Shown in pieces: positions 3,966 to 39,274 of a stretch of 64,000 nt of DNA. The stretch is taken from assembly GCF_044647545.1 (NCBI RefSeq), contig NZ_CP172818.1; one strand, given 5' to 3'. The translations under genes and the position numbers were made by a program. Origin of the DNA: Escherichia coli (GTDB lineage: Bacteria; Pseudomonadota; Gammaproteobacteria; Enterobacterales; Enterobacteriaceae). Numbering within the stretch: position 1 is the first letter of the stretch; each line of letters begins with the position of its first letter. The notes below the pieces were generated by a model. It saw only the letters and a list, made by a program, of their open reading frames with translations. It had not been told where the DNA came from and did not search any database.

Positions 3966-5324
<1,359 letters not shown>

Positions 5325-5331
5325 TTCGACA

Positions 5332-6957
5332 TCAACCCTGCCCTTCAGGGGTGGGGTTACCTTGCTTATCCTCAGTAAACTCCTTTCTTAGCATCACAAA
5401 ATCGAAAACATCATGGTTTGCATCTACAACCCGTGAGTCTCCTTTATAGTGTGCAATCACTTCCTCAAGCGTTTGCGGCTGTTCCGGCTTTGTTACCCCC
5501 ATCCACGCATTAATAAGGTAATTATTGTACGCAGTGGAAAAGATATCGTTTTCCGTTGTGCGATCCACGCCATCCCCAAGAACGGGGCTATACCAGATAA
5601 ACATCGGGACATGATATGCCTGCTGGCTGGCCTCCCTGCCTCCATGAAAATAGACGTTCTTCTTCGTAGGGTCGCGTTCCAGGCCGTGGTCGGCAAAATA
5701 CATGACCGAGGCGCGGCGATCTTTTAATAATTCAAAAACCTGACCTAGCAAACTATCTGTGTAATGAATGGAGTTGTCATAGCAGGCATCCTGATCGTCC
5801 TGCGGTTGAAACACGGCGCTGGATTGCGGATAGGCGCTACAAGCCGGTTCATGGCTTCCATTTAAATGAAGAACAATCAGTTTCTTTTGCTGCGTCTTTT
5901 GCTGTAACGCTTGCGATAAATGCGGCAACAACAATTCATCAAATCCTCTGACATAGACTGTTTCCATGGCGCGCATGGCGATACTGGTAACTGCTGTACC
6001 ATTCTGCCGAAAAGCGGATTGCGAGCTTAGCCAGAAAGTCTGAAATCCTGCTTGATTAGCCATATTAATAATGTTGTCCGGGTAATTATGAATGTCATGA
6101 CTCAAAACAGAATCAGCAGTTAAAGAAAGGGGAACCGACAGCGCAGTGTAAGGTGCACCGCTTATTGCTTGATTAAACAGTTTGATCTGTTTTCTTTGTG
6201 CTTCGACTTGCGGTGTCGTAGAGCGTGTGTATCCATACAAAGACATATTGTCGACACGTACAGACTCCCCCACAATCAACACGTAGGTATCAATACCTGT
6301 ATCCCTGACTGATAATTGAAAATACGGCACCGTGTTTGCAATTGAGAGTAATCTTTGATGCTCTTTCGCTGCTAAAGCAAAATAATTGAGATTGAAAAAC
6401 GGTGTATAGGTAGCAAATCGCGACGCTAGTATATATGGACTGAACGCTTTTTTATTTTTTGCATCTTTATAAGCAAATTGACAAGCGGAAAATAAACTGC
6501 CCGAAATGACAATCAGCAATAATATTCCTGTCACTTTTTTTGTCGGCAAGGAAACATCATATTTTATTATTACTGCCAAAAAAAGAAGGGATAAAAAAGC
6601 AAAAGCACATAGATAAGGGATATACATCCCCAGCATTTTCACAACTTCATCCGGATCACTCTGCAGCACACTAATCGCAAATCCATCATTGAAAGTTGTA
6701 CCAAAGGTACACCATGAATAGAGGCTAATACTCATGTCTGCCGCAGTCAGTAACACAAATGGTGCGGCAACAAGCAGGCGAAGCGGAAGGGATGATATAC
6801 GTTTAACAACCAGGATGGTCAGAACGAAAAACAGCAATCGCTGAACCATATGCGCTCCGGAAGAGGCGACTAAGTTCGTAATACCAAAAACAATAACACA
6901 AAGATACAACAACCAATGAGATTTAAAACTTCTAACAAATTTGTTGAATACTGTCAT
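5332..6957 (-). CDS. yhbX: Inner-membrane sulfatase-family (phosphoethanolamine transferase-like) protein YhbX
   Basis: ORF of 552 aa; start moved to internal Met (MTVFNKF...) for the ~541-aa form; N-terminal TM helices then sulfatase-like domain; convergent with argG, 7-bp gap. Confidence 0.75.
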   Translation of the reverse strand: MTVFNKFVRSFKSHWLLYLCVIVFGITNLVASSGAHMVQRLLFFVLTILVVKRISSLPLRLLVAAPFVLLTAADMSISLYSWCTFGTTFNDGFAISVLQSDPDEVVKMLGMYIPYLCAFAFLSLLFLAVIIKYDVSLPTKKVTGILLLIVISGSLFSACQFAYKDAKNKKAFSPYILASRFATYTPFFNLNYFALAAKEHQRLLSIANTVPYFQLSVRDTGIDTYVLIVGESVRVDNMSLYGYTRSTTPQVEAQRKQIKLFNQAISGAPYTALSVPLSLTADSVLSHDIHNYPDNIINMANQAGFQTFWLSSQSAFRQNGTAVTSIAMRAMETVYVRGFDELLLPHLSQALQQKTQQKKLIVLHLNGSHEPACSAYPQSSAVFQPQDDQDACYDNSIHYTDSLLGQVFELLKDRRASVMYFADHGLERDPTKKNVYFHGGREASQQAYHVPMFIWYSPVLGDGVDRTTENDIFSTAYNNYLINAWMGVTKPEQPQTLEEVIAHYKGDSRVVDANHDVFDFVMLRKEFTEDKQGNPTPEGQG

Positions 6958-7371
6958 CCAGAAATCCAAGTTCACAACCAATATAAACAATTATCAACAA
7001 TGTTCAATTTTATATCAGACATGTTTTTCAACTCTGATCCATATCAGACCGAAACACTGTTAGTTTTTTCTTTTTAAATGATGCGGCCATTGTTCTCAGT
7101 AATTAAATAACATTATCAATGCGTCTCTAAACATTACGCAGAACGTAGCCATCAGTAGTTATACTGACAGGAGCAGGATGGTTTATCGAGAAGTAAACAT
7201 ATCCGTATTCGTACCGGAACTGGAGTTGACACAATAAAGTGCCAATTATGTCAGCAGAAGGGAAAAGTTTATAACTAAGGCGTACCGGCACCATCGTTTC
7301 AAGGTACCAGCTACGAGTAAAGCAACTGGACGAGATACAGATACCTGACAACCATTCCTCAGACCAGGACC

Positions 7372-7402
7372 AAAACGAAAAGAGACGCTTTTCAGCGTCT
7401 CT
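7372..7402 (-). terminator. Rho-independent terminator downstream of leuU (end of secG-leuU transcript)
   Basis: Minus-strand hairpin agagacgc-ugaaaa-gcgucucu followed by a U-rich run, immediately 3' of the tRNA. Confidence 0.5.
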
Positions 7403-7413
7403 TTTCTGGAATT

Positions 7414-7500
7414 TGGTACCGAGGACGGGACTTGAACCCGTAAGCCCTATTGGGCACTACCACCTCAAGGTAGCGTGTCTACCAATTCCACCACCTCGGC
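7414..7500 (-). tRNA. leuU: tRNA-Leu, 87 nt with long variable arm
   Basis: Reverse complement reads GCCGAGGTGGTGGAATTGGTAGACACGCTACCTTGAGGTGGTAGTGCCCAATAGGGCTTACGGGTTCAAGTCCCGTCCTCGGTACCA. Confidence 0.9.
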
Positions 7501-7514
7501 ACGGATACTACTTT

Positions 7515-7847
7515 TTAGTTCGGGATATCGCTGGTCGGCTTAGCCGGAGCAGCTGGCTGAGTTTGTTCGGTTTTCGCCGGCGCACTCAGGTTTTCCCATT
7601 CGCTACCTTTATTGGTTTTATTGCTATTGATGTTACCCAGCACCAGACTGATGATGAAGAATAACGTTGCCAGCAGCGCCGTCATGCGGGTCATGAAGTT
7701 ACCAGAACCACTTGAACCAAACAGCGTAGCGGAAGCGCCTGCTCCGAAGGAGGCTCCCATATCAGCGCCTTTACCTTGCTGCAGCATGATCAGACCAACA
7801 AGGCCAATTGCCACAATAAGGAAAACTACTAAAAGAGCTTCGTACAT
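7515..7847 (-). CDS. secG: Protein-export membrane protein SecG
   Basis: ORF contains MYEALLVVFLIVAIGLVGLIMLQQGKGADMGASFGAGASATLFG...; start moved to the Met giving the 110-aa protein; directly upstream of leuU. Confidence 0.9.
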   Translation of the reverse strand: MYEALLVVFLIVAIGLVGLIMLQQGKGADMGASFGAGASATLFGSSGSGNFMTRMTALLATLFFIISLVLGNINSNKTNKGSEWENLSAPAKTEQTQPAAPAKPTSDIPN

Positions 7848-8074: not shown

Positions 8075-9412
8075 TTAAACGGCTTTTACTGCATCGGCGA
8101 TGCGGTGTGCAAATTCAGTCACCTGCGCTTCGTCTTCGCCTTCCACCATCACGCGAATTAACGGTTCGGTGCCGGATTTACGCAACAGCACACGTCCACG
8201 GCTACCCAGCGCCGCTTCAACTTCTGCAGTCACAGCTTTGACTGATTCATGCTCCAGCGGATCGCCGCTACCTGCGGTGTAACGCACGTTTACCAGGATT
8301 TGCGGGAACATTTTCATGCCGCTGCAAAGGTCGTGCAGGCTCATATGGTTACGCGCCATCGCCGCCAGCACCTGCAAACCAGCAACGATGCCGTCACCGG
8401 TAGTGGTTTTATCCAGCAGGATCACATGACCGGAGTTCTCTGCACCGATACGCCAGCCTTTCTCCTGCATTTTTTCCAGTACGTAGCGGTCACCCACTTT
8501 CGCGCGCGCAAATGGAATACCTAACTGTTTCAGCGCCAGTTCAAGCCCCATGTTGCTCATCAATGTACCCACAGCACCTCCACGCAGCTGGCCCTGACGA
8601 AGACCCTCACGCGCGATGATATACATGATCTGATCGCCATCGACTTTATTGCCTTCATGGTCAACCATAATCACGCGATCGCCGTCGCCGTCGAAGGCAA
8701 TACCGAGATCCGCTTTTTCAGCCAGCACACGAGCCTGGAGCGCGCGAACGTCGGTAGCCCCCACTTCGGCATTGATGTTTACACCGTTTGGCTCACAACC
8801 GATAGCGATAACGTTCGCCCCCAGTTCACGCAGCACGTTCGGCGCGATGTGGTAAGTCGCACCGTTTGCACAATCCACCACAATCTTCAGTTCACTGAGG
8901 CTAAGTTCGTTCGGGAACGTGGCTTTGCAAAACTCGATATAGCGACCCGCAGCATCAACGATACGGCTGGCTTTACCCAGTTCTGCCGAATCAACACAGC
9001 TGATCTCTTTTTCCATTTCCGCTTCGATGGCCTCTTCTACTGCATCCGGTAGTTTGGTGCCGTCGATAGAGAAAAATTTAATGCCATTATCGTAGAACGG
9101 GTTATGCGATGCAGATATCACAATTCCGGCCTCTGCGCGGAAGGTACGCGTCAGATAAGCCACGGCCGGTGTTGGCATCGGACCAGTGAAGAGTGCGGAA
9201 AGGCCCGCAGCCGCCAGACCCGCTTCCAGTGCTGACTCCAGCATATAGCCAGAAATACGCGTGTCTTTACCAATAATGATCTTACGGGAGCCGTGGCGCG
9301 CCAGCACTTTACCCGCGGCCCAACCCAGCTTAAGCACAAAATCAGGTGTGATCGGCGCATCCCCTACACGACCACGAATCCCATCGGTACCGAAATATTT
9401 ACGATTACTCAT
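8075..9412 (-). CDS. glmM: Phosphoglucosamine mutase
   Basis: 445-aa [40 protein letters not shown]... with the [10 protein letters not shown] active-site serine motif. Confidence 0.95.
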
Positions 9413-14305: not shown

Positions 14306-15739
14306 ATGCGATTTTCCAGATTTATCATCGGATTGACCAGCTGTATAGCGTTCAGTGTTCAGGCCGCAAATGTTGATGAGTACATTACTCAACTCCCCGC
14401 TGGTGCCAACCTTGCCCTGATGGTGCAAAAAGTCGGCGCGTCGGCCCCCGCTATTGATTACCACAGTCAGCAGATGGCGCTGCCCGCCAGTACGCAGAAA
14501 GTGATTACTGCGCTGGCGGCGTTGATTCAACTCGGCCCCGATTTTCGTTTTACCACGACGCTTGAAACCAAAGGTAATGTGGAAAACGGTGTACTTAAGG
14601 GTGACTTAGTAGCGCGATTTGGTGCCGATCCGACGTTAAAACGTCAGGATATTCGCAATATGGTCGCGACTTTGAAAAAATCTGGCGTCAACCAAATCGA
14701 TGGCAATGTGTTGATAGATACCTCCATTTTCGCCAGCCACGATAAAGCCCCCGGCTGGCCATGGAATGACATGACACAATGCTTTAGCGCTCCGCCTGCC
14801 GCCGCCATAGTTGACCGCAACTGTTTCTCCGTCTCGCTCTATAGTGCCCCAAAACCTGGTGATATGGCTTTTATACGCGTGGCATCTTATTACCCCGTTA
14901 CGATGTTCAGCCAGGTACGCACCCTCCCCCGTGGTTCTGCCGAAGCGCAATACTGCGAGCTGGATGTGGTGCCAGGCGACCTGAACCGCTTTACGCTGAC
15001 CGGATGCCTGCCACAACGTTCTGAGCCGCTCCCGTTGGCTTTTGCCGTGCAGGATGGTGCCAGCTATGCTGGGGCAATTCTGAAAGATGAGTTAAAACAG
15101 GCAGGTATCACCTGGAGCGGAACACTGCTACGCCAGACTCAGGTTAACGAACCTGGAACGGTAGTTGCCAGTAAACAGTCGGCCCCGCTGCACGATCTGC
15201 TTAAGATTATGCTGAAAAAGTCGGACAACATGATTGCCGATACGGTTTTCCGCATGATCGGCCATGCGCGCTTCAATGTGCCTGGAACATGGCGGGCCGG
15301 GTCGGACGCCGTGCGTCAGATCCTGCGCCAGCAAGCCGGTGTCGATATTGGTAACACCATTATTGCCGATGGTTCAGGGCTTTCGCGGCATAACCTGATT
15401 GCCCCCGCCACCATGATGCAGGTGCTGCAATACATTGCCCAACACGACAATGAACTTAACTTTATCTCTATGCTGCCGCTGGCGGGCTATGACGGCTCTT
15501 TGCAGTACCGTGCAGGTCTGCATCAGGCGGGCGTGGATGGCAAAGTCTCAGCGAAAACCGGCTCGTTGCAGGGGGTATATAACCTGGCGGGATTCATTAC
15601 CACGGCGAGCGGGCAACGAATGGCGTTTGTGCAATATCTTTCTGGCTATGCAGTAGAACCGGCGGATCAGCGTAATCGCCGTATTCCGTTAGTGCGTTTT
15701 GAAAGCCGTTTGTATAAAGATATTTATCAGAACAATTAG
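14306..15739 (+). CDS. dacB: D-alanyl-D-alanine carboxypeptidase/endopeptidase PBP4
   Basis: 477-aa ORF MRFSRFIIGLTSCIAFSVQAANVDEYITQLPAGANLALMVQKVGASAPAIDYHSQQMALPASTQKV... with signal peptide and STQK active-site motif. Confidence 0.9.
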   Translation: MRFSRFIIGLTSCIAFSVQAANVDEYITQLPAGANLALMVQKVGASAPAIDYHSQQMALPASTQKVITALAALIQLGPDFRFTTTLETKGNVENGVLKGDLVARFGADPTLKRQDIRNMVATLKKSGVNQIDGNVLIDTSIFASHDKAPGWPWNDMTQCFSAPPAAAIVDRNCFSVSLYSAPKPGDMAFIRVASYYPVTMFSQVRTLPRGSAEAQYCELDVVPGDLNRFTLTGCLPQRSEPLPLAFAVQDGASYAGAILKDELKQAGITWSGTLLRQTQVNEPGTVVASKQSAPLHDLLKIMLKKSDNMIADTVFRMIGHARFNVPGTWRAGSDAVRQILRQQAGVDIGNTIIADGSGLSRHNLIAPATMMQVLQYIAQHDNELNFISMLPLAGYDGSLQYRAGLHQAGVDGKVSAKTGSLQGVYNLAGFITTASGQRMAFVQYLSGYAVEPADQRNRRIPLVRFESRLYKDIYQNN

Positions 15740-39241: not shown

Positions 39242-39274
39242 AATCTGATAGACCGCGCCTTGAAAAGAGGCCAA

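Follow-up and report, generated by a model that had tools for sequence, protein, structure and literature searches.

The intergenic DNA that separates yhbX from the tRNA gene leuU on the chromosome of Escherichia coli is long enough, as a preliminary description of this locus remarked, to leave room for an unannotated small RNA or a regulatory element, and it also harbors an open reading frame (ORF) of 74 codons. The question raised by this locus is whether the spacer conceals a gene, for an RNA or for a small protein, or whether it consists of the control and termination signals of the genes that border it. The spacer was analyzed within a window of 64,000 nucleotides, that is, the whole stretch of DNA under study. 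The answer that emerges is that the spacer is probably an ordinary composite intergenic region, without a hidden gene.

In the model proposed here, the leuU-proximal end of the spacer (7372-7413) belongs to the conserved chromosomal backbone and holds a Rho-independent terminator, together with a short 3′ trailer, closing the secG-leuU transcript. The rest (6958-7371) is AT-rich DNA that occurs only alongside yhbX and that most likely acts as the 5′ control region of this gene, with a weak promoter near the start codon, protein-binding DNA further upstream and, possibly, a weak site for sigma-32 RNA polymerase about 315 bp upstream of yhbX. According to the same model, the 74-codon ORF would be a chance reading frame, neither conserved as coding sequence nor required by the cell, and a small RNA gene would be absent.

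Anatomy of the locus

In the window, argG (3981-5324) lies on the plus strand, while yhbX (5332-6957), the tRNA-Leu(GAG) gene leuU (7414-7500), secG (7515-7847), located upstream of leuU, and glmM (8075-9412) lie on the minus strand. The identification of leuU is based on ARAGORN and on an Rfam tRNA match of 52.8 bits, and its mature 3′ end has been mapped by Term-seq at K-12 position 3322072. The start of yhbX borders the spacer, and the gap between yhbX and leuU (6958-7413) is exactly 456 bp long, with a G+C content of 38.8%. A single ORF of at least 60 codons is found in the gap, namely the 74-codon frame at 7127-7351 on the minus strand, which begins with TTG; both the coordinates of the spacer and this minus-strand ORF, as given in the preliminary description, were thus reproduced. 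The spacer is 100% identical to that of E. coli FDAARGOS_497, the window being part of an E. coli chromosome, and its version in K-12 MG1655 measures 458 bp. No RefSeq feature is annotated inside the spacer in K-12 MG1655 or in 30 listed complete genomes. The spacer is made of two pieces of different history, the terminator at 7372-7413 and the yhbX-linked DNA at 6958-7371, which are considered in turn below.

The terminator and the leuU trailer

Downstream of the secG-leuU unit, on the minus strand, a scan for intrinsic terminators returns a match at 7367-7406 that has the features of a Rho-independent terminator, that is, a G+C-rich stem-loop followed by a U-tract. Specifically, a perfect 13-bp stem with 6 G-C pairs, running from 7406 to 7377, encloses a 4-nt loop and is followed by GUUUUGG. 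The hairpin folds more stably than shuffled sequences on the minus strand (z = -4.4) as well as on the plus strand (z = -3.2), and it is kept in Salmonella enterica arizonae and diarizonae and in Raoultella. The expectation that the secG-leuU transcript ends within the spacer is therefore borne out, by a hairpin with a U-tract that is conserved across genera. Together with positions 7407-7413, the terminator forms a leuU 3′ trailer of about 45 nt (7413-7367).

The 3′ external transcribed spacer of the glyW-cysT-leuZ operon, 3′ETS-leuZ, functions as a sponge for the small RNAs RyhB and RybB. The layout at leuU is similar, since here too a tRNA-Leu gene is the last of a polycistronic transcript and is followed by a short trailer and an intrinsic terminator, the trailer of about 45 nt being conserved across genera. 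In contrast to 3′ETS-leuZ, the leuU trailer has no Rfam match, and Term-seq shows the mature tRNA end alone, so that the likeness would be one of layout only. In particular, the only Term-seq 3′ end at the edge of the spacer is the mature leuU end (K-12 3322072, minus strand), and not the end of the terminator (PMC7815308 supp. 1). Abundant Term-seq 3′ ends are also present within secG, in the region corresponding to 7620-7760 of the window (K-12 3322299 and 3322389, minus strand), one secG end being classed as ‘upstream ORF’ at -141 from leuU; these ends are probably processing or pause sites of the secG-leuU transcript.

The yhbX islet

In the alignment, homology across genera begins at about position 7372, at the U-tract of the terminator, and nothing is shared to its left. 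Conservation across Enterobacteriaceae, suggested in the preliminary description as a check on the spacer, thus holds for the terminator (7372-7413), kept in Salmonella and Raoultella, and does not extend to 6958-7371. The comparison between species covers Salmonella, Raoultella and one Escherichia-like metagenome contig; among the genome contigs scanned, the pattern made of the terminator and the leuU 3′ end, exact in K-12, retrieved S. enterica arizonae and diarizonae, Raoultella and one contaminant contig, and no Escherichia genome. In S. enterica diarizonae (L012 3824-3991) the interval between argG and leuU is about 165 bp long and consists of an argG terminator and REP-like palindromes, and in the Escherichia-like contig (L051 4398-4549; argG 92% and secG 96% identical) it is about 150 bp long. 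Both of these empty-site intervals (150-165 bp) hold a canonical argG terminator. The corresponding interval of Raoultella contains three unrelated ORFs.

Of 5426 complete E. coli genomes, 5168 contain the spacer, and yhbX with its 414 bp of upstream DNA is found in 95% of them. In 237 of the 5426 (about 4%), yhbX is replaced by a gene on the opposite strand that encodes a 317-aa protein of the XRE/HTH_19 type, and in this allele argG has its own terminator. Because relatives lack both yhbX and the 414 bp, and because these 237 genomes carry the HTH gene instead, the two constitute a single replaceable islet, about 2.05 kb long (5317-7371), which is made up of the final two codons of argG, the yhbX gene and 414 bp of spacer DNA. 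As for the distribution of the protein, a search with YhbX returned matches that, among the at least 120 listed, are all 99-100% identical, the named ones coming from E. coli, and the YhbX cluster listing shows no species besides E. coli; a scan of genome contigs with a YhbX peptide likewise confirmed no relative. Spacer-like DNA has no match among phages. The ‘plasmid’ matches to the spacer derive from three chromosome-sized records (4.8-4.9 Mb) and one record of 354 kb, and are taken as mislabelled chromosomal DNA.

The islet resembles those adjacent to tRNA genes in that a variable segment of low G+C content lies just downstream of leuU, with contents that differ by strain and genus. Unlike tRNA-adjacent islands, however, it carries no integrase, yhbX being the sole gene that it holds, and the 3′ end of the tRNA is not directly repeated at the far junction, where no repeat longer than 8 nt was found; moreover, the junction of the islet falls at the U-tract of the terminator and not within the tRNA. 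A tRNA-targeted integrative island, with an integrase and a tRNA-derived att repeat, was rejected for lack of both, and what is seen resembles a replacement mediated by homologous recombination within the flanking sequences.

Several observations concern the occupants of this site. The argG-leuU interval is a replacement hotspot (L002 3832-5000; L010; L054; L064; L059). The HTH gene recurs, with 98.6% identity, in a contig that shares only 91.6% identity with E. coli over secG, and a homologue with 72% identity occupies the same site in a contig with an argG of 85.6% identity; in view of these occurrences in divergent contigs, the HTH occupant may be older or more mobile than yhbX. Two metagenome contigs, L042 and L045, associate yhbX and a spacer of the E. 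coli type (98-99%) with a divergent argG (92.6% and 84.8%, respectively), which suggests either that recombination had its breakpoints where argG meets yhbX or that the assemblies are chimeric. A further contig (L071), in which an unrelated 981-aa ORF stands beside an E. coli-like secG, was set aside as a metagenome chimera by appearance. With regard to the integrity of yhbX, one genome (L030, GCA_038399155.1) carries a 1-bp deletion that leaves the gene uncalled, and a second E. coli genome (L024) has a 505-aa yhbX call with a later start; such occasional decay fits an accessory status of the gene.

Nucleotide diversity and constraint

The diversity of the spacer was measured in 19 E. coli genomes, using as reference the four-fold degenerate sites pooled from argG, yhbX, secG, glmM and folP; an exact-sequence look-up with SecG, which returned E. 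coli loci only, was used for this purpose. Over 6958-7371, nucleotide diversity (π) is 0.0146, against 0.068 at the pooled four-fold sites of the 19 genomes, and in a set of 43 sequences it is 0.0156, against 0.070 at the four-fold sites of yhbX. In other words, four-fold degenerate sites are about 4.5 times as polymorphic as the islet part of the spacer. The difference is found in both base classes, with 10 of 253 A/T sites segregating in the spacer versus 77 of 396 at four-fold positions (Fisher p = 3e-9), and 13 of 161 G/C sites versus 118 of 520 (Fisher p = 2e-5). The islet part of the spacer is under purifying selection, and the spacer between secG and glmM has a similarly low diversity (π = 0.022 in the 19 genomes).

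A larger set of 52 sequences, composed of the 19 E. coli genomes and 33 metagenome contigs, was used for single nucleotide polymorphisms (SNPs). No significant conserved block was found in the spacer among the 52 sequences, SNPs being spread out along it. A SNP-free stretch at 7061-7156, apparent in the 19 genomes, is not significant with 52 (estimated p of about 0.1) and was discarded as a conserved block. The approximately 330 bp that extend from the proximal promoter candidates described below to the terminator are as constrained as the rest of the spacer. Conservation no greater than neutral expectation, which the preliminary description regarded as an argument against a function, is thus not what was observed, as the spacer lies 4-5-fold below four-fold sites; this does not imply a hidden gene. 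Specifically, purifying selection on intergenic DNA is described as general in bacterial core genomes in a passage of a previous study (PMC5890482, citing Thorpe 2017 and Molina & van Nimwegen 2008). Since such selection is reported to be the norm, and since the secG-glmM spacer behaves alike, the conservation of the yhbX-leuU spacer points to ordinary regulatory constraint and not to a hidden gene. For the same reason, that is, because purifying selection acts on the islet DNA upstream of yhbX as it does on core intergenic regions, yhbX probably has real transcriptional control.

It could be argued that the 414 bp are functionless filler that came with yhbX, and that their low diversity reflects a low mutation rate of AT-rich DNA or hitch-hiking. 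This DNA is in fact found exclusively with yhbX, no motif or structure beyond chance was detected in it, and it tolerates indel polymorphisms of 1 bp and 2 bp and a 6-bp deletion. In addition, it tolerates the insertion of a cassette: in a published strain, a cat cassette placed at about 7265/7266, within the 74-codon ORF, is used as a neutral, ftsH-linked marker (bioRxiv 10.1101/2023.02.03.527047). Against this reading, the deficit of diversity affects the A/T and the G/C class alike, and the secG-glmM spacer, which contains promoter and UTR sequence, gives a similar ratio. Hitch-hiking, in turn, fails because the neighboring four-fold sites of yhbX remain diverse in the same strains (π of 0.06-0.07). 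Functionless filler is consequently held to be unlikely, and regulatory constraint on a yhbX control region remains the preferred reading of the 414 bp.

Candidate control elements upstream of yhbX

The preliminary description had placed the yhbX promoter in the spacer. Two overlapping sigma-70-like candidates are indeed located on the minus strand at 6980-7018, 25-60 bp upstream of the yhbX ATG, namely CTGATA-17-GATAAT (7018-6990) and TTGAAC-16-TATATT (7007-6980). A promoter at this position is plausible, but such sites are no commoner than in shuffled sequences (2 found versus 2.0 expected); if used, the candidates would give yhbX a 5′ UTR of about 15-25 nt. Further upstream, a palindrome, TCTGAT-ATGG-ATCAGA, spans 7033-7048, and GTCTGATAT recurs at 7012-7020. 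One arm of the palindrome is polymorphic (position 7036), and the element might be a protein-binding site. Both the position of the yhbX promoter and what binds upstream of it are inferred.

Promoters recognized by sigma-32 conform to a consensus with a -35 element CTTGAAA, a spacer of 13-15 nt and a -10 element CCCCATNT. A sigma-32-like element is found on the minus strand at 7275-7303, with a perfect -35 (CTTGAAA, 7303-7297), a 14-nt spacer and a poor -10, CGCCTTAG, which matches 4 of the 7 specified positions. The 64-kb window contains three copies of CTTGAAA (7297-7303, 14561-14567 and 39259-39265), versus 10.9 +/- 3.0 expected from shuffles. Both elements are polymorphic among the 52 sequences, at positions 7303, 7282 and 7276, the first base of the -35 varying in 10 and the -10 in 17 of them. 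The sole experimental sign of RNA polymerase binding in the spacer is peak #100 of a genomic-SELEX survey of the RpoH holoenzyme, assigned to the yhbX<-leuU spacer at 3,319,952 in old K-12 coordinates (PMC5493296); if the coordinates of the two K-12 versions are taken to be offset by about 1978 bp, as inferred here, it corresponds to approximately position 7272 of the window. The peak has an intensity of 3.2, the cut-off being 3.0, and was obtained in vitro at coarse resolution (PMC5493296).

These data raise the possibility that yhbX is expressed from a sigma-32 promoter at about 7303-7275, behind a leader of about 310 nt; in that case, the distal half of the spacer would be transcribed and act as a regulatory leader. 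If true, such a promoter would link yhbX, a poorly characterized gene of the phosphoethanolamine-transferase family, to the heat-shock or envelope-stress response, and the long leader would explain why constraint spans the whole 414 bp. The assignment of the SELEX peak to this spacer speaks for the proposal, as do the perfect -35, which lies 25-30 bp from the peak and is one of only three copies in 64 kb, and the constraint on the distal spacer, as strong as that on the proximal part. The minus strand also folds marginally better than shuffles over the whole spacer (z = -1.93; 3 of 100 shuffles as good), with one window at -2.18, which would be in line with a weakly structured minus-strand leader, at a marginal level of significance. 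On the other hand, the peak barely exceeds the cut-off and was seen in vitro, the -10 element is poor, and polymorphism affects both the first -35 base and the -10; in addition, the neutral cat marker is inserted between the site and yhbX, although this gene is itself dispensable. A sigma-32 promoter with a long leader is for these reasons regarded as rather improbable, and an ordinary control region with a weak promoter near the yhbX start continues to be favored.

In the survey that reported the peak, the spacer is listed as ‘type-B’, a class of spacer that follows one transcription unit and precedes the next (PMC5493296), in agreement with its combination of the secG-leuU terminator and the presumed yhbX promoter region. 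Compared with such a spacer, the one between yhbX and leuU exceeds the length required for both elements, about 330 bp being left without an assigned function, and everything except the terminator is accessory DNA that is missing from relatives.

Antisense transcription and the small RNA question

Pervasive antisense transcription in AT-rich accessory DNA is curbed by Rho, with H-NS binding as the usual partner. A behavior of this kind is seen in the spacer, where a weak plus-strand transcript ends in a Rho-dependent manner in a region with an approximate centre at 7080-7095 (K-12 3321743, about window position 7087; PMC7815308 supp. 2). Specifically, the reads drop from 199 to 22 in the absence of bicyclomycin (BCM) and from 240 to 76 in its presence, which corresponds to a Rho score of 2.86, a low value with respect to Rho-curbed pervasive transcription (PMC7815308 supp. 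2). The signal at about 7087 is low-level transcription antisense to the 5′ end of yhbX, running out of this gene.

An unannotated small RNA, on either strand, would make use of the approximately 330 bp that are constrained and have no assigned role. The hairpin at 7377-7406 could also end a plus-strand transcript (z = -3.2), and weak plus-strand transcription does enter the spacer, to be stopped by Rho near 7087. The latter signal is, however, low-level antisense read-in of a type listed at hundreds of sites, and the other lines of evidence argue against an RNA gene. In a search against Rfam 15 at a permissive threshold, the tRNA was the only family matched, all others remaining far under their gathering scores; the best non-tRNA match, STnc50 (E = 0.17; 24 bits, the gathering score being 55), covers the terminator only. 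In the 120-nt windows tested on both strands, just the two that contain the terminator hairpin beat shuffles (-4.4 and -3.2), the remaining ones ranging from -2.2 to +0.6 with a lowest single window of -2.18, and over the whole spacer the plus strand gives a z of +0.68; folding outside the terminator is thus not significant. The consensus scan found no intrinsic terminator in the spacer beyond that of leuU, no promoter-like site in a suitable position and, hence, no promoter/terminator pair inside it. Furthermore, no Term-seq 3′ end is listed inside the spacer on either strand for K-12 in LB at OD 0.4, LB at OD 2.0 or M63 (PMC7815308 supp. 1). Conservation of the sort seen for small RNAs is lacking too, as the spacer DNA is missing from Salmonella, Raoultella and the Escherichia-like relative.

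No small RNA gene in the spacer is supported by these data, and the room for one, to which the preliminary description had drawn attention, is occupied by neither an Rfam family, nor a fold signal, nor an internal Term-seq 3′ end. The encoding of a small RNA by this DNA is accordingly considered very unlikely, and a composite of terminator and yhbX control region is retained. A minus-strand hairpin at 7310-7285 was also considered as a conserved structure and rejected, its window having a z of -1.1; the SNPs at 7303, 7288 and 7289 all preserve pairing, as about half of transitions would by chance.

The 74-codon ORF

When the spacer was shuffled 5000 times with its dinucleotide composition preserved, the longest complete ORF reached at least 74 codons in 10.4% of the shuffles, with a mean of 53, so that the length of the frame at 7127-7351 (minus strand) is within chance. 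The preliminary description saw no obvious ribosome-binding site, a statement that scoring does not uphold: a Shine-Dalgarno-like GAGGA (7356-7360, minus strand) lies 4 nt before the TTG and forms an anti-SD duplex of -6.1 kcal/mol, which places it among roughly the top 7% of random start triplets of the window. Nevertheless, both the spacing of 4 nt and the start codon are suboptimal, and a strong intrinsic terminator precedes the site by about 20 nt, with no promoter found by the consensus scan between the terminator and the start of the ORF. The predicted product has no recognizable domain, as had been remarked, with a best Pfam E-value of 0.2 and an empty PADLOC output. In a collection of 5.8 billion proteins it matches only 5 clusters, 3 of them from E. 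coli by source name and 2 without an organism name; none of the 5 contains a Pfam domain, and no homologue outside E. coli was found in this collection. As the underlying DNA is present in 5168 of 5426 genomes, the small number of clusters means that the ORF is almost never called as a gene. One of the 2 unnamed clusters (P0124), with 72% identity to the ORF, was rejected as a homologue because it is chimeric.

The pattern of variation is not that of a coding sequence either. The 17 SNPs found in the ORF among the 52 E. coli sequences fall 9/2/6 on codon positions 1/2/3, and in the 19 genomes non-synonymous changes number about 10 against 4 synonymous ones, which is the neutral proportion; that is, the excess of synonymous change typical of a coding gene is absent from both sets. 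In yhbX, by contrast, codon positions 1+2 have about 0.12 times the diversity of four-fold sites. Disruptive alleles also circulate: a nonsense allele leaving 41 aa is carried by E. coli 113290 and, independently, by a metagenome contig (L078), and a stop-loss allele, an in-frame 6-bp deletion and possible frameshift alleles were found as well.

Translation of this frame into a 74-aa protein, or into one of 55 aa from an internal ATG, off RNA reading through the terminator has in its favor the GAGGA motif, a frame uninterrupted in most E. coli sequences and the presence of only 2 of 17 SNPs at codon position 2, yet it is extremely unlikely, and already largely refuted, given the chance length, the lack of homologues and domains, a codon position 1 at least as variable as position 3, the nonsense allele of a natural lineage seen twice, the start beyond a strong terminator and the neutrality of the cat insertion in laboratory use. 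The 74-codon ORF is a chance ORF and not a gene. It is thereby removed as a candidate and should remain unannotated, just as there is no sign of a hidden RNA gene in the spacer. The strain-variable islet status of the spacer, the terminator excepted, matters for what is meant by a ‘neutral’ insertion at this site.

The 3′ end of argG

A last set of observations regards the opposite border of the islet. In the yhbX allele, the stop codons of argG (5324) and yhbX (5332) are separated by 7 bp, the final two codons of argG are not those found in the other allele, and argG has no terminator outside yhbX. The argG 3′ end detected by Term-seq is located at K-12 3320017-19 (plus strand), in the 3′ coding end of yhbX and past a CCCTGCCCTTCAGGG hairpin, with a Rho score of 3.76, and the argG-yhbX pair is classed as an excludon by ExcludonFinder.
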